Program-made: the position numbers and the translations under genes | Shown: positions 1 to 35,959 of the stretch, one piece after another | How positions within the stretch are numbered: the first letter of the stretch is position 1 | Layout of the letters: each line of letters begins with the position of its first letter | The notes under the pieces: model-generated | The model's input: only the letters and a program-made list of their open reading frames with translations | What the model was told of the DNA's origin: nothing | The model's database searches: none | NCBI GenBank assembly: GCA_963782465.1 | Contig: CAWAJR010000005.1 | Location: 321,671-385,670 of the forward strand | Length of the DNA: 64,000 bases | Direction of reading: 5' to 3' | Source: an uncultured Actinomycetes bacterium | GTDB lineage: Bacteria > Actinomycetota > Acidimicrobiia > IMCC26256 > PALSA-610

Positions 1-439
1 CGACTTCCCGATCGACTCGCTGCGCTGCAACGGGCCGATCGGCGACTCGTCTCGGTCAACGTCGCCGGTCACGGCGCACTGCTCGTCGCGAAGCTCCACA
101 AGCTCGGCGATCGATTCGCGACACCCGATCGCCTCGATGCCAGGGATACCGGCGACGTCTACCGGCTGTTCGATGCGGTCGGCGCCGGCGACGTGACTTC
201 CACGCTCGGCGTGCTCCTCGATGACACTCGGTCAGCAGCAACGACGGCCGAGGCGCTCGCCTACCTCACGGAGCTGTTCCGTGCGGCGGTGAGTCCAGGT
301 GTCACGCTTGCCGTAAACGTCATTGGGCTCGGTGCCCCGGCACCGACCGTGACCACGGTGCTCACCGCCTACGCGACGACTCGCCGAGCTGCTCGAGCAC
401 TTGACGGCCGCGCAGGTCGCCGCGCAGCGGCCCTATTGA
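1..439 (+). CDS. Nucleotidyltransferase-fold protein, C-terminal part (AbiEii/MNT-like); 5' end outside window, apparent frameshift near 375
   Basis: Frame 1 from base 1 reads VAGHGALLVAKLHKLGDRFATPDRLDARDTGDVYRLFDAV, resembling the helical C-terminal half of AbiEii-type NTases. The tail continues in another frame (LAELLEHLTAAQVAAQRPY) to TGA 437-439. Motif-level recognition only. Confidence 0.35.
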
Positions 440-1250
440 TCGCCGCCTCCGGGGGTCGGGGCCAGACCTCCGCAATCGTCTTCCCCATCGCGAGGTTCCG
501 TTCGCCGATGTTCGCCTCGTTCCGCGCGGCGACGTGTGGGTCGACGATGTGCTTGTTCAACGTCGGCGCGTCTGAACGGTAGGACTGCGTTTGCAGCAGC
601 GTCCTTCCGGTTGGTGCGATCGTCGAGGCTTCCTCGTCGTCCACGGCCGGTTGGAGAGGCGACGTTGAGCTTGTGTTGTTACGAGGGTGAGATTGCCGAG
701 CGTGTTTGATGTAGTGGTCCCTGGCAGCAGGCCTCGTCGTTCCCGCCGTGCCGTCATCCCAGAAGCTGCGCCACCCCTGCGGCATGACGTGCTCAATGTC
801 GAGCTTCGTTGGCAGGGTTACCGATGGTGACGATCGGTCCGCAACTCTAGTTCGACTTGCGGCGAGAATGGCTCGAAGTCGCTGCTGTTTAATGTTCCCG
901 TAGGCCTTCACGTTCAGGAGTAGGGACATGAGCGCCTCGATTCAGTCGGCCGGATGCGGCGTCGACCATCTGACTTGCAGGTAGGCGACCGTAGATCATC
1001 GCCAACGTTGGCGCCAGCGTGCTGGTCCAGCTCCTTCAGCATTGCGACGACGAGCTTGTTGACGTCCTTGATCGTATCGCACAGCAAGATTCAGCAAACG
1101 ACCCAGCTCTCCATCGCCGACAGTGCCGCGTCGCGCTGCGGGACGGGATGAGGTACTCCGCTGATCAGCAGGAGAAGCAGGGGCGTGAAGGCGCCGAGCT
1201 CTAACGCCTGGACAACCGCGTGTCCGAACTTGCCGCGCTGACCGGGAGAT
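369..1250 (-). pseudogene. GmrSD-like (DUF262/DUF1524) endonuclease remnant; N-terminal DUF262 half missing, several frame breaks
   Basis: DUF1524 His-Me finger motifs are split over two frames: LDIEHVMPQGW (ORF 369-929) and GNLTLVTTQAQRRLSNRPW (ORF 557-796). Upstream minus-strand remnants (AMESWVV-stop-ILLCDTIKDVNKLVVAMLKEL) resemble the middle region. Similarity stops about 30 bp from the divergent hsdR start. Confidence 0.6.
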
Positions 1251-5281: not shown

Positions 5282-8262
5282 TCACAGTTCGATGCCGAGG
5301 TCATGCTCCAGCTCACGGTCGAGTCCTCGCTCGGCGACACGCCCGAGGCGAGAGGCGATGTCGATCTGTCGGTCAAGCGTCGCGAGTAGGACGAGTTCAG
5401 CATGGTTCTCGTGCTCCCACGACAGCGCGGGTGAGGACCTCGGGCGTGACGTTCGCCGAGCGCGCGGTCGAGTTGGCGGAGCTTTTCTCGTGGCTGTTGA
5501 TCTCGACTTCGAAGCGCTCGATGCGGTCCTCGATCTCGTGGCGTTTCACGCGGTGCGTGCGCCGACCGATCGGACCGAGCTCGTCGAGTTCCTTTTGCGC
5601 GACGTCGCGCCGCCAATGCGCCTCGCTGAGGTACCGCTCCTCTTGTTGGTGCCGGTGCTCAACCCGCGGAACTCCCGGCCGCGGTCCGGTGGTCCGTCGC
5701 CAATTCGTCGACGCAGGACGTCGCACTCGTGACGCATCGAGTTGAGCGCTGTCGATCTCGGATCGACTTGGTCGAGCGCAAGACGCTGCCCTGCGGAACG
5801 GGCCACGACTGAACGCAGCGAATCGAGCGCATCGAGTCCCACTTCGGTGGCGTGGCGCTCGTCGATGCGGTGATCGTTCTCGGCGATGAAGACATCGTTG
5901 CCTCTACGCCCACGACAGGGCGGTGTACGCGTGCTCGCGCGCACCGGTCTCGTCGAGGAGCACGAGGCAGCGATCCACGGTCGCGCCTTGCGCCTTGTGG
6001 ATCGTGGTGGCGTAGCCGTGCGTCAGATGCCCAGCCTCGACGTACTCGAACGGAACCACGAACCGTTCTCCGTCGTCACAGTGGACAGTGAGGGTCCTCG
6101 CGCCACGTCGATCTGGTCGATCAATGCCGCGCGTGCCGTTGAGCAGTCCGACTCGGTAGTCGTTGCGCAAGGCGAGAACGTCGTCGCCCTCCGCGAAGCC
6201 TCGGCCCGCGAGCAGCACCCTGTCATCGCCGAGGTATCCCTCGAGTCGCAGGATGACCCGGGCGCGCCGGTTGAGATCGTCGACGTCTGCGAGACGCGGG
6301 GCAACCATGAGGACGTTCTCGCCTTCGACCCGCGCGTTCATCCATTCCTCGATCAACTGCTCACGCACTTCGCTTTCGCTCGACGCGACGTGAACGCGGT
6401 CGTGCGCGACATAGGAGTCAATCGCTTGATCGGAGTCGCCACGTCGGAGTTCGGCGAGCGCATTGCGTTCCCACGCGTCGACTTGGCGTCGGTTGTCGGT
6501 CAGGACGCTCGCACCGAGTCCGCGCGGAGTCCGCGGAACGCGCCCCCGGCGTCGATCTCGGGAAGTTGGCATGGGTCGCCGACGAGCACGACCTTCGCTC
6601 CAACGGCGTCAGCGCGTTCGACGAGACGGGAGAGTTTGCGGGTGCCAACCATCGCAGCCTCATCGACTACCAGCACGGTGGTGCCCGGCGCCGTCGTCGG
6701 TGCATTCGAGGCGGCCGAGCAAACGGTCGATAGTCCACGACGGGATGCCGGCGTCGTTCTGTAGTTGCTTGGCGGCGCGGGCCGCGAGCGAGCAGCCGAT
6801 CACCCGGTAGCCAGACGCCTCCCACGCTTCGCGCGCCGCGGCGAGGGCGAAGGTCTTGCCGGCGCCGGCGACTCCCTCGACGATCTCGATCCCGTCGCCG
6901 GATGAGCAGATTGCTCGGACCATGCGCGTTGCTCGTCCGACATAGGGGCGCGCGGCAATCGCGTTCTCGATCGCGTCCGGGGCGGCGATGCCGCACGATG
7001 TGGCCGGCGGCAGAGCGCCGTGTCGACCAGCCCCATCTCCAGCTCGAGCATCTCCGGTGTCGTCCACGGTTCTCGTCGGTCCGAGCCGCCACAACTGTCC
7101 CGTCCTGGAGGCGGATCGTTGCGGCGGCAGGATCGGCTCGCACGACGAGGACGTGTTGGGACGTGACGAACCCGTCGACGACGTCGAGGACCTGATCAAC
7201 CGGGCCACCGCCGGGCAGGGCGTTGCACACGGCCTTGATGACATCGCGTTCGCCGAACGTGCTGGCTCTCGCCGTGAGTCCGTTCGCGCTTGCCAGCCAT
7301 CGGTACAGATTCTCCGCCTCTGGACTTCCCGGCCTCGGCGGGTCCACCACCGGGAGCCGGCCGAGCGTGGCGGCCAGAGCTTTCGAGTCGAGGCCGTTTG
7401 CGTCCGCGCGCGTTCGCCACCCCGGTAGCAGTCCTTCGACGTCGACGCCGTCGTCCTTTGCTCGGCGGGTGGCGTACGCGGCGAACTGCGCGGCGCGCGC
7501 GCTGTGCTGACCGTGCTCCTCGAGGTGGGCCTCGATCTCTTTGCGGCGAGTGGAGAATTCCCCGATCGCGGCGCGCGGGATGCCGGCGATGTCGGCAATC
7601 CCGTTGCGCACCGGTCCCCAGTCCACGCCGAGGCGGCGGGTGAGCTCCCATCGCAGCTGTGCCTCGTAGAGATGCCCGACGGGCGAGAGCCATGAATACA
7701 GCGGTCGCGCGTCGAGCGCGGTCCACCGATCGTCGTGCGCGCGTGGGCGAGGTTCGCGAGCACGACGTGGGTGTGCAGGTGAGGGTCCGCGGCCCGCGAC
7801 GTGCGATGCCGAAACGCCGCGGCCACGAACCCGTCAGCGTCAAGAACCGTGTGCCCGCCTTTGCCCTCGCCGTACACGGCACGCGGCGCGCTCCAACACC
7901 GCCAACGACGCGGTCACCGCCGCGTCGGCCGCGTTGCGGACCTCGTTCGACACCTCGGGCTCGCTGAGCGCGAAGAGCAGCGACACGGACTTCGGAGCAG
8001 AAAACGTGACATCGAAGCCCGCGACGACGGGCACCGACCGCGACGCAGTCAGTCGATCGCTGCCGTCGGGATGGACGTGGTCGAGCACGCGACCCAACGC
8101 ATCGGCGTCGACATCGCCATCGAGCCCGAGCAGCGCCGAGGCGCGGCCCACCCACTGGCCGGGCGCCTCCTTCGCGCCCGTGTAGTACTCCTCCGCGCCC
8201 TTCGCGACTGTGTCGAGGTAGTACTGCTGCTGGCCGGGCGCGAGCTTCCCGAGGCTCAACAC
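5282..8262 (-). pseudogene. MobF-family relaxase / RecD-like helicase (TrwC/TraA-type), multiply frameshifted
   Basis: N-terminal VLSLGKLAPGQQQYYLDTVAKGAEEYYTG and FDVTFSAPKSVS. Histidine triad AAFRHRTSRAADPHLHTHVVLAN. Walker A VEGVAGAGKTFAL. C-terminal ATTIHKAQGATVD. Pieces: ORFs 7840-8370, 6660-7877, 6667-7626, 5904-6572, 5397-5726. Tail ...LGIEL ends at TGA 5282-5284. Confidence 0.8.
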
Positions 8263-8821: not shown

Positions 8822-9498
8822 ATGCCGAGGCTCAAGAACCTGTTCCGCCGGACCTACTCCCCGAACCAGATCGTGGCGCTGAACGTCGCCCGAGCCAGAG
8901 CGATCCGCGGGATGGACTCAGGAACAAGCGTCCGAACGCGCTCGCCCCCTACCTCGGAACCCGCTGGTCGAACGCGAGCTTCTCCGCGGTCGAGCGCTCG
9001 ATCGGTGGCACGAGGGTGAAGCAGTTCAGCGCCGATGAGCTCGTCGCGCTCGCCCGCGGGTTCGACCTGCCGCTCGGCTGGTTCTTCCTGCCCCCGCCTC
9101 CCGAGGAGGACGCCGGGCTGCATTCGAAGGAGGCGAGCGGTCGTGGCGTCGACATGGGCGTGCTGCTCGACATCGTGCTCGGCACGCCCGTGAGCACGCC
9201 TCCGTGGCGCGACGCGCTGCTCGCGTACGCGGCGGCAACCGCGAAGGAGGAAGCCGAAGGGAGCGGCACCGGCGCCGCGGGCTATGGCACCGTGGAGCAG
9301 CGCCTCGACGCCCTCGCCGAGCTGCGAGCGGCCAGTGAGCTGCGCCAGGCCTTCGGGGACGTGGCGGAAGCACGAGACGTCCTCCTCCGGCTCGCCGCGA
9401 AGCTCGACCGCCTCGACGGTCCCGCGACCGCCACCCCGTCACACGAGCCGGCACGAACTGGCACCAAGTCCAAGGGCGTCCGCCGCTCGAAGCGCTGA
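8822..9498 (+). pseudogene. XRE-family HTH regulator upstream of integrase, two apparent frameshifts (about 8910 and 8940)
   Basis: Joined reading: YSPNQIVALNVARARAIRGWTQEQASER / LAPYLGTRWSNASFSAVERSIGGTRVKQFSADELVALARGFDLPLGWFFLPP. Pieces: ORFs 8822-9019 and 9016-9498. Confidence 0.45.
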
Positions 9499-9530
9499 AC
9501 CGGTCGGCACGAACCGACACGAAGGAGCCC

Positions 9531-10699
9531 GTGATGCGAGGTCACGTTGCCAAGAAGGGCAACCGCTACTACGCCGTCATCTACGAAGGCATCGATCCGG
9601 CCACGGGACGGCAACGGCACCGCTGGTACGCCGGCGGCGCCACCCGCAAGGAAGCCGAGAAGCTCCTCGCCGAGATGGTGAAGCGCAACCACGACGGCGA
9701 CTACCGCGCGCCCGAACGCATCACCCTCGGCGACCTACCTCGAGGAGCGATGGCTGCCCACGAAGCGCTCGCAGCTGCGGCACTCGACGTGGGACTCGTA
9801 CCGGCGCAACGTCGAGATCCACGTCAAGCCGCGCATCGGCAACATCCCGCTGCAGCGGCTCACACCCGAGGACCTCGACGCGTTCTACGCCGCGCTGCTC
9901 GTCGACGGTCGCCGCAACGGCGCCGGCGGCGGGTTGTCACCGCGCTCGGTGCGGATCATCCACGGGATGCTGCGCAAGGCACTCGCCGACGCGTGCCGCA
10001 AAGGCACGGTGCTCCGCAACGTGGCCGACCTCGCCGACCCACCCAAGCCGAGCGCGCTACGGCAAGAAGGAGATGCGGATCTGGACCGCTGCGCAGCTCC
10101 GACAGTTCCTCGAAGAGATCGATGACCATCGACTCGCGCCGGCGTTCTTCGTCGCGGCGAACACCGGAATGCGCCGCGGCGAAGTGCTCGGGCTCCGGTG
10201 GGACGACGTCGACCTCGAAGCCGCGCGCATCTCCGTGCGCCACGCGGTGCTCAACGTCGCGTACGAGCTCGTGCTCGCCGACGTGAAGACCAAGACGAGC
10301 CGGCGCACGATCGACCTCGACCCGCGCACCGTTGCCGTGCTGCGCGCGTGGCGGAAGACGCAGCTCGAGGAACGACTCGCCCTCGGCCATCGGCCCGACG
10401 ACATCGACATCGTGTTCAGCGCGCTCGAAGGCGGCCCGACGCATCCCGACCTGTTCAGCCAGACCTTCGACCGCGCCGTCGCCAAGTCAACGCTGCCGCG
10501 CATCCGGCTGCACGACCTGCGGCACACGCACGCGTCGATCCTGTTGAAGGCCGGCGTGCCGGTGAAGGTCGTCAGCGAACGCCTCGGCCACAGCAGCCCC
10601 GCGTTCACGATGACGGTGTACCAGCACGTCCTGCCCGGCATGCAGGCCGACGCCGCGGCTGATGTTCAGCGACGCAGTGTTCGGCGGCGCGCGCCCGTA
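9531..10699 (+). pseudogene. int: Tyrosine recombinase / phage-type integrase, at least 3 apparent frameshifts
   Basis: Arm-binding N-terminus GHVAKKGNRYYAVIYEGIDPATGRQRHRWYAG. Catalytic region NTGMRRGEVLGLRW, RLHDLRHTHASILL, LGHSSPAFTMTVYQHV (Tyr nucleophile). Pieces: ORFs 9531-10286, 9934-10125, 9284-10783. Likely C-terminus FSDAVFGGARP ends at TAA about 10697-10699. Confidence 0.85.
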
Positions 10700-10729
10700 A
10701 CGTGTCATGCGAAGTGGGCTGTGGCGGCA

Positions 10730-11713
10730 TCACAGCCGATGCGAGTAAGCGTTGTTGACCGTCCATTGTCCTGTACGCCGTGAGCCCAAGAACTCGATCG
10801 CGACCACCTCAGCGGAAGCTCGTACAGAAAGGTCCTTCAAGGCGAGTCCCGCTCGCGGCCCTGCTTGCCACACTCCGGCACAGAGATCCTTGAGTTCGTT
10901 CACGACGGTCGCTGTTGGCAATCGGCTGCTGCGGTTTGGCGTGAGCACCGCGAGGCTGCCGTCGGTCCAGGTCGCGTAGACCGCTGGCTCGTGCGCATGC
11001 CCACTCCCGTGATGCGGCACCTTGACCAGCCGCTGCGGGCTCAGCAAGCCGAGCCGTTCTCTCATGCTGCGCGAGGAGGGCACTCCAGCCAAGGGCTTCA
11101 TGGCGATCCATGTCAGCGCCAAAGAGAGCCGTCGCGGCGCCCGCCCTGAGCCAAAGCACAATCGACGTGTAGTTCTCGCGGAGAATGCCCGTGCCGCAGC
11201 CGCCGCCGCCGGTGCCGTCGCTTTGTGAGCAGCAAGCTGGGCAGCCGCGAGCGGAGCGAGCGCCGACAGCTCAGGGGGCTCGGTGTTGACGAAACTGTCG
11301 ACAGCCATCGGTCGGAAACGCCCGGTGTCCATGGCCAGTCGGAATGCGTTGGCGATCTCCTGCAGCTTGTCTGAACGCGGCGGCTCTTCCGACAAGAGAC
11401 GCTCAAGGACGCGGTTCCAGTGCTCCTCTGGAACCGCTGCAGGCATGGAGAACGTCGCTCGCGGGCAACGCACGAGGAGGTCGTCGATTCCGTCGCTGTG
11501 ATCCGCGTGCAGATGCGACAGGATCACCGCGGCGACGTCGGTCTCGGGACGAACGCCGCGCCCGTTCAAGTAATCAATGGCGGCGGGATTGCCGGAACCG
11601 GGCGTCCGGAACGAGTCCACGATGACCCAGTCGCCTGGACGTAGGCACACAAGAATGCTCTCGCCGATGCCCTTGCCCAGCACGACAACCTCGACGACGT
11701 CATCAGTCGACAC
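10730..11713 (-). CDS. ComEC-type metallo-beta-lactamase-fold hydrolase (soluble, no TM domain); ORF is open but a central segment reads better in another frame
   Basis: HLHADHSDG (HxHxDH, 11515-11498) and LVKVPHHGSGH (ComEC-like C-terminal His motif). Alternate-frame ORF 10809-11159 gives ENYTSIVLWLRAGAATALFGADMD..GWSALL, the expected middle strands, so two compensating shifts are likely. The GTG start overlaps the upstream gene's stop by 11 nt. Confidence 0.7.
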   Translation of the reverse strand: MSTDDVVEVVVLGKGIGESILVCLRPGDWVIVDSFRTPGSGNPAAIDYLNGRGVRPETDVAAVILSHLHADHSDGIDDLLVRCPRATFSMPAAVPEEHWNRVLERLLSEEPPRSDKLQEIANAFRLAMDTGRFRPMAVDSFVNTEPPELSALAPLAAAQLAAHKATAPAAAAAARAFSARTTRRLCFGSGRAPRRLSLALTWIAMKPLAGVPSSRSMRERLGLLSPQRLVKVPHHGSGHAHEPAVYATWTDGSLAVLTPNRSSRLPTATVVNELKDLCAGVWQAGPRAGLALKDLSVRASAEVVAIEFLGSRRTGQWTVNNAYSHRL

Positions 11714-13899
11714 AGCCCGTAGTGCCCGAGAAGCGCGTGGCTAGTCGAGCGTTGGGGCTGTCGAGGGCGCGATGACGCACCCGGGCGATCAACTCGGGCT
11801 TGCCAATCGTGTTGAAGAGCGCGCCAGACGATCCAGTCAAATCGTGCGCCCGCGTGTAACAGCTCGGCTTCTTCAGCATCGAGCAGCGCTGCCGAGAGCT
11901 CGGCGACGTCGGTCTCACCATCGAAGAGACGGCTCTCGACGGTGGCCCGGAAGCCTTCGTCAAGTCGATCGGTGACAACGCCCTGCCACGCTTGCGCGAG
12001 CTCCCCCGGGAGAGCTTGCGAGACGATCGCATCGAGGTCCTCGAAGAACTCTCGGAGCGCCTGCGGCCTCTCCGAACTGATGTCATCGAGAACAGCCCAA
12101 CAGAACAGGTTGCCCGCCCTCAGATCGTCGCGGTAGCGGCGAACAAACGCTTCGGCATCGGCATCGGCTGTGACCGTGCCGGCTCGCAGATCATCGCGGT
12201 ACCGGCGAACGAGGCTCTCGGGCGCCCCGCTCGCGAGGTATGCAGTCTCGCCGGACCTGTACTGACGCGAGATGACACCGTGGTCACTCTCGAGAGTCGT
12301 AGGCACGACGATGCCGAGATCGTTCCCAAGATCCACGGCAAGAGATGTCGACGCTGCCGACCAAGCGTCCGTCATGTCGACGTCAGGAAGAATCATCGAC
12401 GTCAGCTCGTGCATCGTGATGCCTTGCTTCAACACCCGCGGCCCCGCGATGGCGTCGCCGTCGTTCTCCCGATACGTGACGTACTGAGGGTAGTCATATG
12501 TTCGGAGAATCTCCTCCTGCTTGCGCTCCAGCTCGCGGTCGACGAATCCGAACACGAGCAACAAGTGGAGAGCCCAGAACGGATCCACGCGGTCGTGGCG
12601 CCCTTCGCTGGCTGCGGAGGCTCAACCGCAGTGCCTAACAGCGAGAGTTGGTTAGCAGCGGCCAACTCTTCGGTCGCGTCAATCGTCAGCCGACTCAGGA
12701 TCATTCGTTTGCGAACAACGTCTCGACGACCGAGGCCCGAACGGAGCCGTAGCGGCACCAGCGATTCAGACGCGTATGCGTCGTCTCGACCGTTGTACGC
12801 CTCGACCGCGGCGTCAAACGCAGCGAGGACAACGGCAGCGTCCGCCTTCCCGAAGTAGGTCTCGAGAGGACGGGTGTCGAGGACGGAGTGATCGAGCCGC
12901 TCCTGTACTCCGAGACCCGCGAGCTCCGGCCACAGCTCAGCGAGGACGCACCCTGACAGGTACATCTGGACCAGTCGGTGCTTGGCGCGCGCTCGCCATG
13001 CATCACAACCAACGTCGAAGCCCGTCTCCTTGCGCAGGTTCGCTAGGAGTTCGGTGAGACGCGGCTCTACGACTGCTCCCGGGACGCCGATGGGAACGAT
13101 CCGAACGCCGTTCGCATGCGAACCTTCGATGGACGCGTAGATCCTTGCCTTCAGGACGTCGGCAATTGAGGTTGCGCCCGCTGCGCCTCGGGCTCGAATT
13201 CGCGCGGCGGTGTTCCGGCGCGGCACCAGCGTCCAGGCTCGTCGCGTGGGCCGGCGAACATCTTGGGGGCGGACACGTCGGCGGCAAGCCAGCGATCGGT
13301 TCGAAGCAGGTCGAACAACGCTTCCGTCGTCGTCGACAGCGGGGCGCACGCCGGAAAGTCCGTGAAGTACGGCACACCGGCCCGGTAGAGGCAACTCGCA
13401 ACATCGAAAGCGAAGCCCTCGAGCTCCTTCGTGCTTCGAGCGACAACCTCACTACCTTCTCCCACGGCCAACTTCAATCGGTCAGCAAATGCAAGGTTGT
13501 ATCGCTCGCGGTCAACAGCAGCAACGAGCGTTGTGACTAGCTCAGCGCTGCCGACTCGGGTCACGACGTCGTCATAGAGATCGACGAGAGTTGTACCGAG
13601 CACGATCGAGTCGTCCAGGAGAATCACGCGCCGACCGCGAACTCCGCAACGCCGCCATCGAGCGCGCGATCCGTAATGACTTCACACTGATCCAGGACGT
13701 CCAACCCGCTTGCTACGAGCATGTCGTACACGCACGAGAGGCGGCGCGATACGAGGATGACGACAGTCGGTTGGTTGCCGGTCGATCCGTTCGCGATTTC
13801 GGCGGCACTCGTGAAGAGGCTGGCCAAGGCTTCGCGCAGCTCCGCGTCACGAACATGGGCCAGGGGTGCGGCCCAGTCAGCAGTGCTAACGGGCGGCAC
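11703..13899 (-). pseudogene. Large (~730 aa) protein with N-terminal phosphoribosyltransferase (PRTase)-like domain and unrecognised C-terminal two-thirds; at least 4 frame changes as assembled
   Basis: ORF pieces 13624-13899, 13151-13627, 12429-13394, 11566-12588 and 11703-12086 join into one reading. PRTase signature: TVVILVSRRLSCVYDML, then (G)RRVILLDDSIVLGTTL (13627-13586; acidic pair plus G-T-T PRPP loop). The rest has no motif I recognise. Contains a 22-codon internal duplication (VRRYRDDLRAG twice). Confidence 0.6.
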
Positions 13900-14123: not shown

Positions 14124-14477
14124 TCATCCGCTCGAGGTTCCGGCTCCAATCACGACCTGCCAGCAGAGAAGGGCAGCGAGGAGAAGGTAGGCCAAGACGA
14201 ATACACCGAGCACGGGCTCCCACTCTTTCGTACCGATGGCCTTGACCACGTCGAGCGCGAGTGGCCCTAGCAGGGTGAGCGACGCAATCGTCACTGCGCA
14301 CAGACCCGCGCACGCGTAGCGGATTGACTTGAGTCGCTCGGGGTGGGCACCGCCCTCTCTCGTGCGCTCGTCTCCGAGCCGCCTCGCCTGCTCACTCGTA
14401 AACAACGTCACCAGAGCAAGGAGGAGGCCGAGAAGGTTCGCCGCTTGTGCGACCTGATCCGCGAGCGTCTGGCGCAT
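14124..14477 (-). CDS. Small (117 aa) predicted 3-TM membrane protein
   Basis: MRQTLADQVAQAANLLGLLLALVTLFT..YACAGLCAVTIASLTLLGPLAL..VLGVFVLAYLLLAALLCWQVVIG gives three hydrophobic helices. ATG 14477 follows an alternate-frame TAG (14483-14485) and a GGAG. Confidence 0.45.
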   Translation of the reverse strand: MRQTLADQVAQAANLLGLLLALVTLFTSEQARRLGDERTREGGAHPERLKSIRYACAGLCAVTIASLTLLGPLALDVVKAIGTKEWEPVLGVFVLAYLLLAALLCWQVVIGAGTSSG

Positions 14478-14482
14478 GACAC

Positions 14483-15059
14483 CTACTCCGGAGCGTCCAG
14501 GCCGAGCTCCTCCAGAGTCTTCACCTTCTTCGAATCCCGGGTGACCGTACGCGGAACCGTGACGGTTCGTCGCGGACGCGTGCACCTCAGCGTCACCCGC
14601 GAGGCCGAGTCGCATCACCTCGGCCCAGGCAGCGTCCAGCGTGCTCGACTCGCTGAAGCGGAGCGTCCACGTCAGACCCGCCTCCTCGGTGCCGCTCGCG
14701 ATCACCTTTGCGTCATCTCGCATCCTGGCCAGGAACTTCTCTCGGAGCGCTTCCTCGTAGGTCGCGAGCATCGTGGTGAGGATGGACCGAGCCGACGTTG
14801 CGGTCACGCGGAACAGAATCTCGACCTCGCGCTGCGAGAGCAGACGACCGGCTCGATCACATATGAAACGCAGCTGATCGGCCTTCGACGTGGTCATGCT
14901 CGTCGGCACCGCGCTCGATCCGTTAATCAGCTCGAAGGCCTGGTCCATGGCACCGGCGAGCGCGGCGTCGGTCAACGTTGCCGCGTTCGCCTGTGTCAGG
15001 CCACCGAGATTCGCGAGACGCTCGATCGCACGATCTCGCTGATCCTTGTCGACGTTCAT
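14483..15059 (-). CDS. Hypothetical soluble protein (~190 aa), possible wHTH; C-terminus probably frameshifted near 14570
   Basis: ATG at 15059 (MNVDKDQRDRAIERLANLGG...). LSQREVEILFRVTATSARSILTTMLATY looks HTH-like. As assembled it runs into the 3-TM ORF, but a neighbouring frame ends ...KVKTLEELGLDAPE-TAG just before ATG 14477. Confidence 0.4.
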
Positions 15060-15141
15060 CGCAACATGGTCCCTGATGCGGCGCCGGCGCTGACGGATCT
15101 CGACCTTGTAGCGCCGTGTTGCGCAGCCTTGCGCGCACTCG

Positions 15142-15221: not shown

Positions 15222-15270
15222 TGGTGGCGGGGGCGGGATTTGAACCTGCGACCTTCGGGTTATGAGCCCG
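15222..15270 (-). tRNA. Orphan 3' fragment (~49 nt) of tRNA-fMet(CAT), from anticodon arm to CCA; att-like island boundary, not a functional tRNA
   Basis: Minus strand reads TCGGG-CTCATAA-CCCGA AGGTC GCAGG-TTCAAAT-CCCGC CCCCGCC-A-CCA. The three G:C pairs next to the CAT loop are initiator-type. The 5' side has no D-arm or acceptor strand complementary to CCCCGCC. Confidence 0.75.
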
Positions 15271-16619
15271 ATGGGAAGGCTTCGGGTGGCTCGTCGCCCA
15301 CCGAAGGTGTGGTGAGCGGCGCTTGGGCTGGCGGCGCCGGTGCGTCGTCGCTCGGGCGCACCGCCGGACGGCGCGACGCGCTCACGCGGGCACGACCCTT
15401 CTTCACGAGGCGGTTCAGCCCGCCGCGCCAGTCGCGCTCGGGTGGCGCGACCACGCCACCGGGCCGGCGGATCGCACCGAAATAGGTCAAGCCGCTGAAC
15501 AGCAGGACCATCGACGCGAGGAACACGCCGGCGCGACCGCCACCGGGGAAGAGCACTGCGAGCAGCCCTCCTCCGACCCACGCGAGTTGGAAACGCGTTT
15601 CGAAGCGGGCGAAGGCCCTTCCCCGTGCCGCGTCGGCACCGTCGCGCTGCACGAGGCTGTCGAACGCCAGACGTCCGATCGCGGCGCCGGCGGCGACGAG
15701 GAACCCGACGCCGATGAGCTGCATCCGACCGTAGGACCGGGCGAGGAACACCGAGCGCGACGCCGGGCAGGAGCAACGAGCCGATGAGGATCCACTCCTC
15801 GCGGAAGTGCTTCCTGAAGAACGGGGCCGACAGCGTGCCGGCGCCGTTGCCCAACACGCTCCCACCCAGCAGCGCGCCGTACAACCAGGTCGGTGCATGC
15901 GCGCTCTTCAGCACGAACGCGGCGAAGAACGTGACAAAACCAACGACGCCGCGCAGCAGTGCCATCGCGCTCCCCGCGACGAGAATGCTCGGAAGGTGCA
16001 GGGCGCGCCGGTCGGCTTCGCTCTCCGCCGACGCGACGTGCTCGGCTCGAGGGATGCGCAACGCGGCGAGGGCGCCCGCGAAGAGCACCAGCGACGCGAC
16101 GCGCAAGACCCACTCGCCGCCGGCCAGCTTGAGGATCGCGGCCGCCGGCAGTCCGCCGACCAGGCCCGCGAGTACCGCGATCAGTGCGAGGCGCGAGTTC
16201 GCGAGCACGAGTTCGGCTTCGTCTTCGACGACGGAGGGCACGAGTGAGCTCTTCGCGATCGTCTGAGCCTTCGACAGCACGAGGAGCCCGAACGCGAACG
16301 GGTACAGCAGAAGGGTGTGGATGTTGTCGGCCATGAAGAGGCACAGCACCGAACGCCCCGCGCACGCGATCGCGATGACGAGGCGCCGCCCGCCCCGGCT
16401 GCGGTCGAGCAGCGGCCCGAGCAACGGCGCGATGACCGCAAAGGGCGCCATTGTGAGCATGAGGTAGAGGAGCACCTTGGGCCGGGCCGCGCTCGTCGGC
16501 GCCGAGAAGAACAGCGAGTCGGCGAGCGCGACGGTGACGAACACGTCGCCGCACACACCGATCGCGTACGCGATTGCGAGCCGGCTGAACGGTGAAGAGC
16601 TCGTCGGGATGCGGGTCAA
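15260..16619 (-). CDS. MFS-type transporter, one apparent frameshift near 15750
   Basis: Multi-TM sequence in ORF 14124-16619 (N-terminal part) continues in ORF 15260-15898 (LIGVGFLVAAGAAIGRLAF...). The stop TAA (15260-15262) falls inside the anticodon loop of the tRNA fragment. Confidence 0.65.
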
Positions 16620-16766
16620 GGTGATCGGGCGGAGGATATCCCCCGACCCGCCCGGCTACCCCGCGTGTTCGCGTGCTCGTAACCCGGCCCGGCGCCGCTC
16701 GCCGGCCGGTGCGGGGGCGGCGGTGGCGTCCTTCCGTCCGGGGTTGTCCGGCGTGCCGCGGCGCCC

Positions 16767-16803
16767 TTGAGTGGCCCCCTTCCCACGCACGTACGATTGC
16801 GCC
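16767..16803 (+). promoter_or_regulatory. Putative leaderless promoter of ppk (TTGAGT-19nt-TACGAT-6nt-ATG)
   Basis: -10 TACGAT at 16792-16797 (TANNNT) lies 6 nt before ATG 16804. No Shine-Dalgarno is present. Confidence 0.3.
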
Positions 16804-18888
16804 ATGAGCCTCCCCGACATCGTCGGCGTTCCCGACGACAACGACGCGCGGTACTTGAACCGCGAACTGTCGTGGCTCGACTTCAACGCGCGGGTCCTGG
16901 CCTTGGCCGAAGACCCCGGGCTGCCACTGCTCGAGCGGGCGAAGTTCCTCGCGATCTTCAGCGACAACCTCGACGAGTTCTTCCAGGTACGCGTCTCGGG
17001 ATTGAAGGAACAGGTCCTCGCCGGCGTCCGCACCACTTCACCCGACGGCCTCGACCAGGTCGAACAGCTCCGCGCGATTCGTGAGCGGGTGGAGGAGTTG
17101 GTCACCCGCCAAGCGGCGACGTTCACCAAGGACGTCGCACCCGCGCTCGAAGAAGCCGGCGCGACGTTCGCCGACTGGGACTCGCTCGGCGACGACGACC
17201 GCAACCGGCTCACCCACATCTTCGAGGAACGCATCTTCCCGGTCCTCACGCCGCTCGCGGTCGACCCCGCCCACCCGTTCCCGTACATCTCGAACCTTTC
17301 GCTCAACCTTGCGGTCGTCGTGCGCGACTCGTCGTCGGGTGAAGAGCGTTTCGCGCGCGTCAAGGTCCCGTCGCTGCTCCCGCGCTTCGTCGAACTTCCC
17401 GATCAGACCTTGTTCGTACCGCTCGAACAGGTCATCGCGGCGCACGTCGACGCGCTGTTCCCGGGCATGGAAATCCTGGCTCACCATCCGTTCCGCGTGA
17501 CCCGCGACGCCGACATCGAACTCACCGACGAAGCCGAAGACCTGCTCGCGGCGATGGAACTCGTGTTGCGGCAGCGCACGAAATCCGGCGCCGCGGTGCG
17601 CCTCGAAGTCGACACCAAGATGACGCCCGAGATGCTCGACCTGCTGTGCCGGGAACTCGACTTGGGCCCGAACGACGTGTACGTGATCGACGGTCCACTC
17701 GACCTTGCCGGTCTCTGGACGTTGTACGGCGTGCGCCGCCCCGACCTGAAGTACCCGCCGTTCAAACCGCAGACGCCGCCGAGCCTCGCGGGCGGGAGCG
17801 AAGCCGACGTGATGTGGGCGATGCGTTCGGGCGACGTGCTCGTGCACCACCCTTACGATTCGTTCGCGTCGTCGTTGGAAACCTTCGTTGCCCAGGCCGC
17901 GTCCGATCCTGCGGTCCTCGCGATCAAACAGACGCTCTACCGCACCGGTGGTGAAGAAGCGGGCATCGTCGCGTCGCTCGTGAAAGCGGCCGAAGCGAGC
18001 AAGCAAGTCGTCGCACTGGTCGAGTTGAAGGCCCGCTTCGACGAGCAGTCGAACATCGAACGTGCCCGCATGCTGGAAGAAGCGGGCGCGCACGTCGTCT
18101 ACGGGCTCGTCGGCCTGAAGACCCACGCGAAGATCCTGCTCGTCGTCCGGCGCGAAGCCGACGGCATCCGGCGCTACTGCCATGTCGGCACCGGCAACTA
18201 CAACCCGAAGACCGCGACGCTCTACGAAGACATCGGCATCCTGTCGGCCGATCCCGAATTGGGCGCCGACCTCTCCGAGTTGTTCAACCATCTCACCGGC
18301 TACAGCCACCCGGGCCGCTACCGCCGGCTCCTCGTCGCGCCCGCGCAGCTGCGGCCCGCGCTCATCGAACTGATCCGCGGCCAGGCCCGGCCCGGCGGCG
18401 CCATCACGATGAAGATGAACAGCGTCGTCGACTCGGAGATGATCGACGAGTTGTACGCGGCGGCGACGGCCGGTGCCCGAATCGACATGAGCGTCCGCGG
18501 GATCTGCTGCCTGCGCCCGGGTGTTCCGGGCCAGTCGGAGAACGTCACCGTCCGGTCGATCGTCGGTCGCTATCTCGAACATTCACGGATCATCCGGTTC
18601 GGCGCACCCGATGATCCCGACGTCGAATACGTCATCGGTTCGGCCGACCTGATGCCACGCAACCTCGATCGCCGGGTCGAAGCAATGCTGCGGGTCACCG
18701 ACCCGCGCTCGCGCGCCCGCCTCGACGAGATCCTCGACCTCGTGTTCGCCGACGACGTGCTCGCGTGGACGTTGCGCCCCGACGGCACCTGGCACCGGGT
18801 CCCGACCGTGCAGGGGATCGAATCGCACGTGGCATTCCAGGAGTTGGCCATCACCCGGGCGAAGAGCCGGGTGGCCGACATCACCTGA
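16804..18888 (+). CDS. ppk: Polyphosphate kinase 1
   Basis: ORF 16771-18888 with RYLNRELSWLDFNARVLALAED and two PLD-like regions (HAKILLV, GSADLMPRNL). Start 16804 is preferred over 16771 because of the leaderless promoter. Confidence 0.95.
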   Translation: MSLPDIVGVPDDNDARYLNRELSWLDFNARVLALAEDPGLPLLERAKFLAIFSDNLDEFFQVRVSGLKEQVLAGVRTTSPDGLDQVEQLRAIRERVEELVTRQAATFTKDVAPALEEAGATFADWDSLGDDDRNRLTHIFEERIFPVLTPLAVDPAHPFPYISNLSLNLAVVVRDSSSGEERFARVKVPSLLPRFVELPDQTLFVPLEQVIAAHVDALFPGMEILAHHPFRVTRDADIELTDEAEDLLAAMELVLRQRTKSGAAVRLEVDTKMTPEMLDLLCRELDLGPNDVYVIDGPLDLAGLWTLYGVRRPDLKYPPFKPQTPPSLAGGSEADVMWAMRSGDVLVHHPYDSFASSLETFVAQAASDPAVLAIKQTLYRTGGEEAGIVASLVKAAEASKQVVALVELKARFDEQSNIERARMLEEAGAHVVYGLVGLKTHAKILLVVRREADGIRRYCHVGTGNYNPKTATLYEDIGILSADPELGADLSELFNHLTGYSHPGRYRRLLVAPAQLRPALIELIRGQARPGGAITMKMNSVVDSEMIDELYAAATAGARIDMSVRGICCLRPGVPGQSENVTVRSIVGRYLEHSRIIRFGAPDDPDVEYVIGSADLMPRNLDRRVEAMLRVTDPRSRARLDEILDLVFADDVLAWTLRPDGTWHRVPTVQGIESHVAFQELAITRAKSRVADIT

Positions 18889-22107: not shown

Positions 22108-22200
22108 GCGGCCCAGGGAACACACTAAAGAACGCAGTTGAAGACCGCGCGAAGGCGCGATGAACGCGCGCCGAACATCGCGTCACGACTCCGGGTCGCG

Positions 22201-22280
22201 CTCGCCGCTCGTTCCCCTGGTCGCGCTCGCTGCGCTCGCCGCTCGTTCCCCTGGTCGCGCTCGCTACGCTCGCCGCTCCT
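22201..22280. repeat. 34-bp tandem repeat, about 2.3 copies, abutting the peroxiredoxin promoter
   Basis: Unit CTCGCCGCTCGTTCCCCTGGTCGCGCTCGCTGCG at 22201-22234. Second copy at 22235-22268 has one mismatch. A partial third copy starts at 22269 and runs into TACACT. Confidence 0.9.
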
Positions 22281-34969: not shown

Positions 34970-35959
34970 TCAACGCAGCAGGGCCGACGCGAGCAGTTCG
35001 ACGTCGTCGATCGCCCCGACCTGGAACGGCACCGCTCCCACTCCGGCGACGAGCGTCTCGACGCCCAACTCCGACCATGCATTCGCCTGGTCGCGTACGT
35101 CGTCGACCGTACCGACGAGGCGACCGCGGCGGAACTCGTCGAGCCCGACCCGGTCGAGCACGCCCGGGGTATTGGCCCGCAGCCGTTCGTAGCGCCGGCG
35201 CAGGTCGACCTCGTTCTCGCCGACGAGCGCGTAGAGCCCGAGCGTCCGCCACACCGTCGACGGGTCGCGACCGATCGCTTCGCAGGCCCGCTCGAGCACT
35301 GTGCAGCGTTCCCGGTAGGCGTCGATCGTCCACGTCCAGCACGTGTTCCAACCGTCGGCATGACGGGCGACGAGACCCAAGAGGCGATCACCCTTGCCGC
35401 CCACGAACACCCGCGGTCGCGGCGCCTGCACCGGCGCCGGCCATGGGGCCGCGCCACGGGTCGAATGCGCGGCGCCGTTGTAGTTGACGGGGCCGCCCTC
35501 GAGCACGGCGGTCACAACCTCCACCGCCTCCCGGAGCCGCGAGAGCCGCGCCCCCGGGCCGGGCATGGCGTCGAACCCGAGCGCGGCGTACTCGGGCTCG
35601 TACCAGCCGGCCCCAAGGCCGACATCGATCCGGCCGCCCGACACACGGTCGGCGGTGGCCAACGCCTTCGCGAGCAGCGCCGCGGGCCGCAACGCTTCGA
35701 GCAGCACCAGCGTGCCGAGCCGAACCCGTGGCACGAGACGCGCGAGCGCGCTCAGCGTCACGATCGGCTCGTAACACGCGTCCCGTCGGTCGCTGCCGCC
35801 GTACTTGCCGAGATCGAGGAACAGGTGATCGGAGCACCACAACGAATCGAAGCCGGCGGCTTCGGCGACCCGAGCGTGCTCGACGATCGTCGCGAACGAC
35901 AACGGGCGCTCACCGGGAACCGAGTAGTCGTACTGGGGCAGCGCGAGCCCGAGGCGCAT
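34970..35959 (-). CDS. LLM-class (luciferase-like) F420-dependent oxidoreductase
   Basis: GFDSLWCSDHLF, GRIDVGLGAGW and GKGDRLLGLVARHADGWN are typical of the LLM family. Confidence 0.8.
   Translation of the reverse strand: MRLGLALPQYDYSVPGERPLSFATIVEHARVAEAAGFDSLWCSDHLFLDLGKYGGSDRRDACYEPIVTLSALARLVPRVRLGTLVLLEALRPAALLAKALATADRVSGGRIDVGLGAGWYEPEYAALGFDAMPGPGARLSRLREAVEVVTAVLEGGPVNYNGAAHSTRGAAPWPAPVQAPRPRVFVGGKGDRLLGLVARHADGWNTCWTWTIDAYRERCTVLERACEAIGRDPSTVWRTLGLYALVGENEVDLRRRYERLRANTPGVLDRVGLDEFRRGRLVGTVDDVRDQANAWSELGVETLVAGVGAVPFQVGAIDDVELLASALLR

Follow-up and report, generated by a model that had tools for sequence, protein, structure and literature searches.

The stretch of 64,000 nucleotides analysed here (the window), from an uncultured member of the Acidimicrobiia, carries a broken copy of a rare, uncharacterised two-gene operon that moves between bacterial phyla on mobile islands. 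The first gene encodes a multidomain protein of ~700 aa headed by a predicted phosphoribosyltransferase (PRTase) fold, and the second a soluble ComEC-type hydrolase with a metallo-beta-lactamase (MBL) fold. The pair looks like an undescribed anti-phage defence system. The reading that we prefer, and to which we give about an even chance, is that the locus preserves, in inactivated form, a two-gene conflict module (anti-phage or directed against mobile elements) that spreads horizontally, and in which the MBL protein would be a DNase effector and the large protein its sensor or regulator.

Both genes of the window copy are disrupted (Table 1). The large gene runs on the minus strand from a GTG at 13899 to a TGA at 11705-11703 and is split into five frame pieces (13899-~13631, ~13630-~13250, ~13249-~12593, ~12592-~11823 and ~11822-11703), with junctions near 13630, 13249, 12592 and 11822 at which three 1-nt deletions and one 1-nt insertion were located. 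A tblastn search of the window with three relatives (P0001-3) returned five HSPs in frames -2/-1/-3/-2/-3, and the repaired product has 732 aa, being 69% identical to the intact P0001 protein of locus L001. It contains a 22-aa duplication that is specific to the window copy (absent from P0001-P0004), with copies at 12207-12178 and 12141-12112 differing only by synonymous changes, and a C-terminal extension of ~14 aa. The short overlap of the two genes is, at the level of sequence, consistent with translational coupling. When compared with the intact L001 partner, the MBL gene shows frameshifts near 11190 (-1) and 11038 (+1, an extra C); HLHADH is encoded at 11515-11498 and KVPHHGSG at 11023-11000. 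Across the pair, the motifs TVVILVSRRLSCVYDML, (R)RVILLDDSIVLGTTL, HLHADHSDG and KVPHHGSG were read, and all that the first-pass annotation had stated about the sequence is confirmed; the two MBL frameshifts, the duplication and the C-terminal extension had escaped it. The joined large protein finds 23 full-length homologues (E 0 to 5e-51) and the MBL protein shares up to 68% identity with the partners in other loci, and therefore the reading frames are not chance ORFs.

With its six frameshifts, the window pair is most likely a pseudogene copy and not a working system, because the core genes of the same window are intact (ppk, 705 aa, and ORFs of 677, 720 and 651 aa). It is unlikely that the frameshifts are sequencing or assembly errors in a copy that is really intact: this would agree with the six lesions all being single-base indels, several in short G/C runs, with the lack of in-frame stops in the pair and with an identity to P0001 that is even across the frame pieces, but at the local rate of ~1 indel per 520 nt it is very unlikely that the ~8 kb of those long genes would be error-free. 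Moreover, the integrase and relaxase genes of the same element are also broken, and other copies of the system have been inactivated too, by different means.

The integrase, whose N-terminal part lies in another frame (9531-10286), identifies the mobile element on which the pair resides. The relaxase fragments of this element are 38-48% identical to an intact 835-aa relaxase of the same family found upstream of the pair in L011. At the other side, the tRNA-Met fragment is probably an att remnant and the right-hand limit of the island; no whole tRNA was found at its position by ARAGORN or Rfam, and ppk lies intact just past it, at 16771-18888. ResIII and N6_Mtase genes are also present in the window.

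Table 1. Features of the window discussed in the text (nt; aa residues where stated).
Feature	Coordinates	Strand	Basis
TrwC-type relaxase/AAA_30 gene fragments, same element as the pair	5892..8262	-	Pfam TrwC, AAA_30
Tyrosine integrase, frameshifted, convergent with the MBL gene	9284..10783	+	Pfam Phage_integrase 1.8e-24
Soluble ComEC-type MBL hydrolase gene, most likely a pseudogene	10730..11713	-	Pfam, comparison with L001 partner
Overlap of large-gene TGA (11705-11703) and MBL GTG (11713-11711), 11 nt	11703..11713	-	Direct sequence reading
Large gene (PRTase-head multidomain protein), most likely a pseudogene	11703..13899	-	ORFs, three-frame translation, tblastn, junction sequences
C-terminal all-beta barrel, tentatively OB-like	11760..12000	-	DSSP strands 614-690
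In-frame 22-aa duplication in the large gene	12112..12207	-	RRYRDDLRAG twice plus spacer
Most conserved C-terminal motif, SLAVDLGNDLGIVVPTT...VISRQYRSGE	12232..12345	-	Helix then beta-hairpin
PRTase-like domain (predicted), residues ~1-185	13345..13899	-	AF2, Foldseek, PDB profile matches
Initiator-like tRNA-Met(CAT) 3' fragment, ~50 nt	15222..15273	-	Sequence reading; unique in window

Intact relatives show that the two genes belong together, as the first-pass annotation had supposed. In addition to the window copy, 12 fully resolved loci have the MBL gene after the large gene, the two being separated by -79 to +24 nt, and the same order is seen in L016, a locus cut by a contig end. These loci span 28-69% identity and four phyla, with hosts that include Acidimicrobiia, mycobacteria (two of them cultured, with intact copies; Mycolicibacterium vulneris DSM 45247 and Mycobacterium sp. 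E2733 are examples of hosts with an intact pair), Chloroflexota and Alphaproteobacteria, and the pairwise identities of the large protein and of the MBL protein are tightly correlated (r=0.97). The distribution is patchy and the system is rare: a set of 5.8 billion clusters yielded 23 close homologues, and 185,579 species genomes yielded 13 loci; full-length cluster representatives of the large protein number ~80. The MBL gene has been lost in L006 and deleted in L003, the large gene being intact in both, and therefore the large protein is not a toxin needing the MBL protein. L003 is one of several further broken copies, together with L015 (IS insertion), L020 and L021 (fragments), and such frequent inactivation of the pair fits a costly effector. 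The large protein is outside the coverage of PADLOC, Pfam and NCBIfam, none of these collections has a model that describes the pair, and no paper on it was found, in line with the earlier claim that the pair was undescribed.

The N-terminus of the large protein is predicted to adopt a type-I PRTase fold, as had been proposed from the window alone. When the AF2 model of P0001 (pLDDT 91.7) was compared with the PDB using Foldseek, the top 50 matches were all HGPRT/HGXPRT structures (prob 1.0, E 3e-3 to 1e-2, TM (target) 0.41-0.52). A PDB profile match to the PyrR/OPRT/APRT PRPP loop was also obtained (E 0.008), the loop aligning to that of PyrR, and Pfam PF00156 (Pribosyltran) gave sub-threshold matches in 12 of 23 members (best E 0.0013), with none in the window pieces and none reaching the gathering threshold. 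The domain has a putative PPi-loop motif, LVSRRLSC, and a PRPP-loop motif, ILLDDSIVLGTT, just upstream of which lies frameshift J1. In the family the PRPP loop reads V-L-[IL]-D-D-x4-G-[ST]-T, with D99, D100 and G105 invariant in 23/23 members and in 54/54 proteins across architectures, and the putative PPi-loop region reads LVSRRLSC or [AS]R[RK]; R55 of the latter is, like those three residues, invariant across three architectures. In our reading, LVSRRLSC may be equivalent to the SRG loop of APRT. The fold is common to type I PRTases (HGPRT, APRT, OPRT) and PRT-fold regulators (PyrR, PurR, ComFC), which likewise have an acidic pair followed by G-x-T in the PRPP loop; an S/A-R-R/K PPi loop may be a further common feature. 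Unlike the type I enzymes, the head of the large protein falls below Pfam and NCBIfam thresholds, has in the ~700-aa group a hydrophobic residue in place of the usual Thr/Ser before the loop Gly, and is fused to ~500 residues without known counterpart. Two details of the first-pass annotation fare less well: the label "giant" is generous for ~700 aa, and the parallel that it drew with the ComFC/ComEC pair finds no specific support, since the best structural matches are HGPRTs, with neither ComFC nor ShosT among them, and the head has no specific affinity to ComFC.

To our knowledge, the PRTase domains so far described in defence are all small toxins or retron effectors. ShosT, retron type III and Ophion employ PRTase domains in defence (PMC11961720; bioRxiv 10.1101/2025.09.30.679545). 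ShosTA resembles the pair in being a two-gene defence-type operon with a PRTase-fold protein whose partner is related to a protein of natural transformation (a ComEC-type MBL in the pair, DprA in ShosTA). However, the large protein is three to four times bigger than ShosT, has unrelated extra domains and, unlike a toxin, is encoded by a gene that persists without its partner. The PADLOC ShosT model did not match the window pieces, P0001, P0005, P0017, P0022 or P0023, giving only a 15-bit PRPP-loop match in a distant 1128-aa relative, and no DprA family member (ShosA-like partner) occurs among the neighbours, the partner being an MBL in 14 loci. Retrons of type III have an RT gene and an msr/msd RNA beside the PRTase; here, the Pfam lists of the neighbours contain no RT family and Rfam is empty for the window. 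No third gene is conserved beside the pair that could correspond to the radical-SAM and PHP genes of Ophion (OpnABC); a single Radical_SAM/BATS neighbour occurs at one locus and is not syntenic.

The PRTase head is followed by ~400 residues that are confidently predicted and have no fold match, and then by a small barrel. This part contains the most conserved C-terminal motif (Table 1), with D527, N530, D531, G533, V536, P537, T539, R548, Q549, R551, G553 and E554 invariant in A1 and A2; no fold match was found for this region, which is possibly a ligand or nucleic-acid site. The barrel, inside which frameshift J4 lies, has weak Foldseek matches (E 0.07-0.5) to the OB folds of eIF5A, SSB, S1 and Csl4, and its assignment as OB-like is accordingly weak. 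By profile comparison, the barrel has a homologue in the C-terminal part of small "b" proteins, whose genes precede those of related MBLs: the A1 HMM matches these proteins at profile positions 587-694, and the reciprocal b-HMM matches ~30 large proteins, its only ORF matches being the loci's own large genes, with none among unrelated background ORFs. The b proteins belong to an undescribed three-gene operon (a+b+MBL; L026-L028), one copy of which lies beside type I R-M genes. It lacks the PRTase module and encodes two small proteins (~225 and ~200 aa) without family assignment, the one just upstream of the MBL ending in the barrel domain, and its MBLs are 26-31% identical to that of the pair.

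The barrel occurs only in the architecture with an MBL neighbour. The PRTase module (796 cluster representatives at E<=1e-3) recurs, with its key residues invariant, in relatives of ~500 aa and ~1100-1370 aa. Some of these relatives carry a C-terminal PNP effector fusion and adjoin Abi_2, RelA_SpoT and WYL genes, and a weak RES match was seen among relatives.

The MBL protein of the window belongs to the metallo-beta-lactamase superfamily (PF00753/PF12706), having HxHxDH and the downstream metal ligands and scoring above the Pfam thresholds (Lactamase_B 7.5e-6, 26.5 bits, cut-off 22.7; Lactamase_B_2 1.8e-6, 28.1 bits, cut-off 27). Across 13 partners the motifs HLHADH, GADMD and KVPHHG have been retained, with Asp replacing the second His in two of them. 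Intact partners match ComEC_Rec2, LmuA, RTasMBL, PDC-M48B, Avs1a and a 6A-MBL enzyme below curated cut-offs. Their best NCBIfam match is TIGR00361 (E 2e-8 to 1e-7), that is, the nuclease domain of ComEC/Rec2, at ~23-33 bits against a cut-off of 190 and confined to the C-terminal MBL region, a result that sustains, below cut-off (E 2e-8), the earlier identification of a soluble ComEC-type partner. In contrast to ComEC/Rec2, a competence gene product with a membrane domain and an N-terminal OB domain (DUF4131), the partner is a soluble protein of ~330 aa devoid of both and encoded in a context that is not one of competence. MBL folds hydrolyse cyclic nucleotides too, and some partners have weak Apyc1-type matches; by sequence, nucleotide phosphodiesterases are more distant from the partner than nuclease-type MBLs are.

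That ComEC-like MBL nucleases are widespread defence effectors, unlocked by partner proteases, has been shown only recently, and the known defence MBLs of the HamM/Avs1a/LmuA clade need such a protease, which is of the trypsin-like or caspase type, encoded next to the MBL and in most cases fused to the sensor. Related defence MBLs were found by experiment to be DNases (PMC12799240; bioRxiv 10.1101/2025.09.03.673762). These gated pro-nucleases (HamM of Hachiman-MBL, Avs1a, MBL-type LmuA, RT-associated MBL and CanC of canu) are, as in the pair, encoded by a separate small soluble MBL gene beside a large multidomain sensor gene (a putative sensor in the pair) in defence islands; the partner keeps their HxHxDH, D and HHG motifs and gives partial, weak matches to them (in PADLOC, LmuA 1.5e-13 to 6e-6, RTasMBL to 1.4e-10, PDC-M48B and Avs1a). 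There, however, the MBL gene is upstream of its partner, whereas here it is downstream. No trypsin-like or caspase protease was detected in the 23 large proteins (families at E<=1) or among called neighbours, so the published activation by proteolytic ungating has no visible agent here; nor does the predicted secondary structure of the large protein include a double beta-barrel.

The proposed setting among defence and mobile-element genes is supported by the neighbours of the individual loci. These include type ISP R-M, patatin, ThiF, AbiEii, Mrr_N and DUF4062 genes, as well as Avs3a/b, SoFic, E1-E2, GmrSD, TrwC, TraG, transposase and integrase genes; some loci (L003, L007 upstream) have ordinary metabolic genes as neighbours.

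In the conflict-module reading, the pair would be island cargo beside the integrase and relaxase, its intact versions producing a ~700-aa cytoplasmic protein co-translated with the MBL-fold hydrolase. The PRTase head, which keeps the PRPP loop and the putative PPi loop, would have PRPP or a ribose-5-phosphate nucleotide as its ligand, possibly also as its substrate; PyrR, PurR and ComFC are precedents for PRT folds acting as ligand-sensing regulators (PMC9005727). The central ~400 residues, whose fold is unmatched, carry a second invariant polar patch, the barrel would couple the large protein to the MBL or to nucleic acid, and the MBL would act as a DNase effector by analogy with ComEC, HamM, Avs1a, LmuA-MBL and CanC. 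The modular make-up of the family favours the MBL as the effector: the barrel also belongs to a second MBL operon, PNP fusions occur in relatives, and L006 and L003 have kept the large gene in the absence of the MBL.

A catalytic PRTase effector of the ShosT kind accounts for the strictly conserved PRPP-site residues no less well than a sensor does. It is conceivable, if rather unlikely, that the head is a ShosT-like effector or co-effector that wrecks PRPP and purine pools once activated, with the C-terminal domains as sensor and the MBL as a second effector, an antitoxin or a clean-up enzyme for a toxic nucleotide product. The invariance of the loop residues in all three architectures, the ShosT, retron and Ophion precedents, the fusion or pairing of relatives with other enzymes of N-glycosidic bonds (PNP and, weakly, RES) and the Apyc1-type matches would agree with it, but the large genes left intact in L006 and L003 count against an MBL antitoxin, the ShosT model found no match, the MBL is closer to the nuclease-type MBLs and the barrel-plus-MBL module recurs without any PRTase.

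Instead of providing anti-phage immunity, the pair could serve the mobile element itself, in transfer, establishment, exclusion or inter-element competition; it might, for instance, process or degrade DNA while conjugation is under way or afterwards. Several copies do adjoin relaxases, TraG/VirD4, VirB11-like ATPases, SLT/M23 hydrolases or integrases, and roles in DNA uptake are on record for the ComEC-type nuclease as well as for the PRT fold (PMC9005727). We consider this quite improbable, given that L006, L007, L008 and L017 occupy defence islands of the chromosome without transfer genes in the vicinity, that a search of 72,556 plasmids and 50,697 phages turned up no copy and that no particular transfer gene keeps synteny with the pair. 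That these are housekeeping genes of nucleotide salvage or natural competence, adjacent by chance, is hardly credible, for although each domain is typical of such functions, the pair is rare and patchy, the large protein falls in no curated family, the MBL lacks the ComEC membrane and OB domains, no comEA, comFA or dprA lies near the examined loci and the window genome tolerates the pair's loss.

The conflict-module reading can be carried further, into a proposal that is speculative and that we hold as doubtful. The pair would represent a new class of immune module, in which a PRPP- or nucleotide-binding PRTase reads the nucleotide pool or a phage-made nucleotide and switches on a ComEC-type DNase, without a protease, a ~400-residue domain not seen before and an OB-like adaptor barrel being the link between the two. 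The PRTase sensor would be reused with PNP and possibly RES effectors, and the barrel-plus-MBL part with a different two-protein sensor, so that several hundred protein clusters would make up a modular network that has gone unrecognised. If this is true, the ComEC-like MBL effector class would gain a different, protease-free controller. The window copy itself is a fossil whose main use is as a pointer to the family, which offers ~400 residues of confidently predicted, unmatched fold and whose PRTase module stands at the front of a superfamily with exchangeable rear parts that lies outside Pfam, NCBIfam and PADLOC coverage.

The large gene, whose product of about 700 residues carries a PRTase head, is directly followed by the gene of a soluble ComEC-type metallo-beta-lactamase (MBL) in the window and in the homologous loci L001, L002, L005, L007-L014, L016 and L017, the L005 MBL not being called as a gene and L016 lying at a contig end. 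The gap between the two genes ranges from -79 to +24 nt in the 12 fully resolved loci, and the pairwise identities of the large proteins closely follow those of the MBLs (Pearson 0.97, Spearman 0.82; 13 pairs). The co-occurrence of the two genes, which the first-pass annotation had raised as a question for other genomes, thus holds beyond the window, and as judged from these comparisons the large protein and the MBL are inherited as a unit. No conserved third gene was found upstream or downstream of the pair. The MBL carries an internal deletion in L003 and L004, and L006 is the one locus having the large gene without an MBL, with an AAA_21 gene after the large gene. In L006, a 26-aa stretch of an upstream gene is repeated (92% identical) just downstream of the large gene, which suggests a rearrangement that removed the MBL. 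In the Ilumatobacter chromosome that holds L015, about 4 kb with rve-type transposase ORFs interrupt the large gene between residues ~413 and ~434, the MBL being still found downstream. Inactivated copies are frequent (window, L003, L015 and fragments in L020 and L021).

The family is rare and patchily distributed. Only 23 close homologues of the joined large protein were found among 5.8 billion clusters, all of 684-733 aa and none with an assigned Pfam domain, while in an exhaustive profile search 796 cluster representatives reached E<=1e-3; 167 of them also reached E<=1e-30, and about 80 of these are full length. Thirteen loci were recovered among 185,579 species genomes, from Acidimicrobiia (Ilumatobacter, Iamiaceae), Chloroflexota, Solirubrobacterales and Ca. 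Poriferisocius, as well as from Hyphomicrobiales, Terracidiphilus, Mycobacterium sp. E2733 and Mycolicibacterium vulneris. The two mycobacterial pairs are on NZ_LZJZ01000068.1 (E2733) and, for M. vulneris DSM 45247, on NZ_NCXM01000003.1, at about 47.2-50.4 kb of the reversed range 37230-59176. A tblastn search of plasmid and phage collections with P0001, the intact large protein of L001, gave no match.

The large protein was modelled with AlphaFold2 using the 23-sequence alignment (pLDDT 91.7, pTM 0.91), and a second model covered the fragment at profile positions 190-680 (pLDDT 93.9). The PRTase-like N-terminus proposed earlier was borne out. The 50 top PDB matches of the head in Foldseek are all HGPRT or HGXPRT (prob 1.0, E 3e-3 to 1e-2, target TM 0.41-0.52), its PRPP loop aligned with PyrR, OPRT and APRT in a profile search of PDB sequences (E 0.008 at best), and R55, D99, D100 and G105 are invariant, being the same in 54 proteins across three architectures; 12 of the 23 members give a sub-threshold match to Pfam Pribosyltran. 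Such invariance points to a site selected for binding PRPP or a ribose-5-phosphate ligand. Given the uniformly HGPRT/HGXPRT character of the matches, a specific relationship to ComFC was rejected, and the suggested parallel to the ComFC/ComEC pairing finds no specific support. As for the ~500 residues in which nothing had been recognised, they indeed have no Foldseek match in PDB or BFVD, save for the last ~80, which form a five-stranded barrel that is weakly OB-like (eIF5A, SSB, S1, Csl4; E 0.07-0.5).

The window MBL, both as it stands and repaired, scores above the Pfam thresholds for Lactamase_B and Lactamase_B_2, and the motifs H-x-[HD]-x-D-H, N-x-x-S, G-[AG]-D and K-[VI]-[PA]-H-H-G are kept in 13 partners. 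Its description as ComEC-type stands insofar as the best NCBIfam match of the partners is ComEC_Rec2, at a score far below the cut-off (E 2e-8 to 2e-5); the next matches are an anti-phage 6A-MBL enzyme and Avs1a, and partial PADLOC matches include LmuA (to 1.5e-13), an RT-associated MBL, PDC-M48B and Avs1a. In Hachiman, AVAST, Lamassu, DRT and canu loci, such MBLs have been shown to be DNases that are inactive at first and are unlocked when a partner protease, trypsin-like or caspase, cleaves their inhibitory loops (PMC12799240; bioRxiv 10.1101/2025.09.03.673762). No protease domain was detectable in the large proteins or among the called neighbours of the pair.

In the window (GC ~63-71%), reading through the large gene requires four frame changes, and intact homologues aligned by tblastn in five collinear HSPs (frames -2, -1, -3, -2, -3). 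The repaired product is of 732 aa, in agreement with the ~730 aa in five pieces of the first-pass annotation, whose quoted motifs and 11-nt overlap between the large-gene TGA and the MBL GTG were likewise recovered from the sequence. The lesions were placed by tblastn junction mapping and from a list of open frames filtered by GC3, the GC3 frame plot being too noisy. A protein-level search also revealed a 22-aa in-frame duplication, missed by the DNA-level repeat search because the copies have diverged; as they differ by synonymous changes only, the large gene was under selection for some time afterwards, and the frameshifts came later. Pfam and PADLOC searches of the raw window pieces matched the MBL alone, Rfam gave no match at gathering level in the window, and no promoter or terminator was found between 10500 and 14300. 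Coordinates are collected in the table.

Features of the window copy, of the large protein and of related loci
Feature	Location	Strand	Basis or remark
Large gene	window 13899-11703	minus	GTG at 13899, TGA at 11705-11703
Large gene, 1-nt deletions	window near 13630, 13249, 12592	minus	junction sequences
Large gene, 1-nt insertion	window near 11822	minus	junction sequences
Large gene, duplication copies	window 12207-12178 and 12141-12112		protein-level search
MBL gene	window 11713-10730	minus	GTG at 11713-11711; start 11 nt before end of large-gene TGA
MBL gene, single-base lesions	window, deletion near 11190; extra C near 11038	minus	comparison with closest intact relative
Two small ORFs, ~190-aa soluble and ~115-aa membrane protein	window 14124-15082	minus	between tRNA fragment and pair, same strand as pair
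Initiator-type tRNA-Met 3' fragment, ~50 nt	window 15222-15273	minus	CAT anticodon stem-loop, T arm, acceptor, CCA; lacks 5' half
Relaxase	window 5892-8262	minus	at least three frame fragments
Integrase	window 9284-10783		out of frame
MFS transporter gene	window ~16619-15300	minus	frame change near 15750-15900
ppk	window 16771-18888		intact, 705 aa
34-nt tandem duplication	window 22198-22265		repeat scan
tRNA-???, 95 nt	window 35556-35650	minus	ARAGORN; two-base anticodon
PRTase core	large-protein residues ~1-185		Foldseek
Alpha/beta domain	large-protein residues ~190-300		predicted structure
Helical domain	large-protein residues ~307-470		predicted structure
Helix-plus-hairpin with invariant patch D-x-G-N-D-L-G-x-x-V-P-x-T...R-Q-x-R-x-G-E	after helical domain		predicted structure
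Upstream gene with 26-aa stretch	L006:7311-7985		repeated at L006:10230-10307
Interruption of large gene	L015:11191-15222		MBL at ~16100-17100
Intact relaxase	L011:387-2891		upstream of pair
PRTase module with PNP_UDP_1	L022:1704-5822		also L023, L024
~500-aa PRTase-module protein and neighbours	L025:498-3536
a+b+MBL operon	L026:4675-7065		genes overlapping or abutting
a+b+MBL operon	L027:4850-7119		genes overlapping or abutting
a+b+MBL operon	L028:4728-7215		genes overlapping or abutting

The window pair accumulates 6 indels within 3.2 kb, and the integrase, the relaxase and the MFS gene are also out of frame. In the same window, ppk and three core ORFs (677, 720 and 651 aa) have unbroken frames, and a uniform error rate cannot explain this contrast. 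Locally poor assembly is a possible source of the frameshifts; the better reading of the pattern is that the pair would be part of a decayed, old integrated element. Its edge is probably marked by the tRNA-Met fragment, as an att remnant; ARAGORN and Rfam found no complete tRNA at this site, the fragment is unique in the window, and no full-length tRNA lies close by. The MFS gene lies just outside this fragment, next to the intact ppk. The element genes comprise a ResIII helicase, an N6_Mtase, TrwC/AAA_30 and the integrase. The two small ORFs beside the pair match no Pfam family, and in other loci the pair is not accompanied by counterparts of them. Elsewhere in the window, a 34-nt unit (GCGCTCGCCGCTCGTTCCCCTGGTCGCGCTCGCT) occurs in perfect tandem duplication, and the ARAGORN call tRNA-???, lacking Rfam support, is probably a false positive.

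The window relaxase shares 38-48% identity with an 835-aa TrwC/AAA_30 relaxase that is intact and lies upstream of the pair in a Chloroflexota MAG (L011), indicating that one element family carries the pair in two phyla and that the pair is cargo of related integrative elements. Conjugation-type genes adjoin it in L001 and L005; its other neighbours are type ISP R-M, patatin and ThiF in L008, AbiEii, Mrr_N and AAA_21 in L006, patatin and DUF4062 in L007, and an SMC/AAA_15/AAA_23 protein in L002. Neighbours in the genome loci include Avs3a/Avs3b, SoFic, E1-E2, GmrSD, two patatins, TrwC, TraG and transposases, with ordinary metabolic genes mixed in.

Two modules are reused, the PRTase module and the barrel-plus-MBL module. 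The N-terminal ~300 residues of the large protein (PRTase plus the next domain) also occur in proteins of ~500 aa and ~1100-1370 aa. The longest of these end in PNP_UDP_1, matching the PADLOC PN-superfamily effector and PDC-M60C, as in P0143 and P0157 from gut metagenomes (~1300-1370 aa), whose C-terminal PNP_UDP_1 is of defence-effector type; one such relative adjoins Abi_2, RelA_SpoT and WYL-regulator genes. In L025, a ~500-aa protein with the module is preceded by an HTH_17/MerR gene, and the gene after it encodes a 508-aa protein with weak RES (E 0.0024) and wHTH matches, which may be another effector pairing and is offered as a lead only. Distant MBL relatives (26-31% identity) sit in another operon, after the genes of two small proteins, a (~225 aa) and b (~200 aa); the L028 copy of this operon comes immediately after hsdR, hsdM and hsdS. 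The large-protein barrel has a homologue in the C-terminus of b, which matches positions 587-694 of the profile built on the ~700-aa architecture; the reciprocal b profile matches about 30 large proteins and, among ~2,600 background ORFs, no unrelated ORF but the loci's own large genes only. The barrel is restricted to the architecture with an MBL neighbour. Profile comparison ruled out a as a relative of the large protein, and PADLOC gave no match for a or b.

This gene pattern fits modular immune systems, in which the MBL together with its barrel-bearing partner would be an effector unit kept constant and joined to alternative sensors, and the PRTase-headed unit would likewise be kept constant and joined to alternative effectors. 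In the proposed mechanism, to which we give an about even chance, the large protein would act as sensor and regulator by means of a site for PRPP or a nucleotide, with the MBL as DNase effector; in PyrR, PurR and ComFC, PRT folds already serve to bind nucleic acids under ligand control (PMC9005727). In the main rival reading, drawn by analogy with ShosT (PMC11961720), the PRTase itself would be catalytic and toxic. Persistence of an intact large gene where the MBL was lost (L006, L003) argues that the large protein is not a toxin held in check by the MBL, and that the MBL is the dispensable, dangerous part. It is also possible that the pair serves the mobile element in a role other than phage defence. 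The pair was rejected as ShosTA, type III retron, Ophion, ComEC or a protease-MBL module (Lamassu/AVAST/DRT), since a defining feature of each was looked for and not found.

Under the sensor-and-DNase proposal, the sensor-plus-MBL-nuclease systems are nearest in working, but the pair has a new partner and lacks the protease. Literature on PRTase+MBL, 6A-MBL, PRTase+OB+nuclease and ComFC yielded no description of it. The large protein, the pair and the a+b+MBL operon are covered by no curated model or paper found, consistent with the initial statement that no described system pairs a PRTase protein with a ComEC-type MBL. Because its copy is most probably a pseudogene, the window locus is in itself ordinary; it is as a family that the PRTase-MBL pair is of interest.
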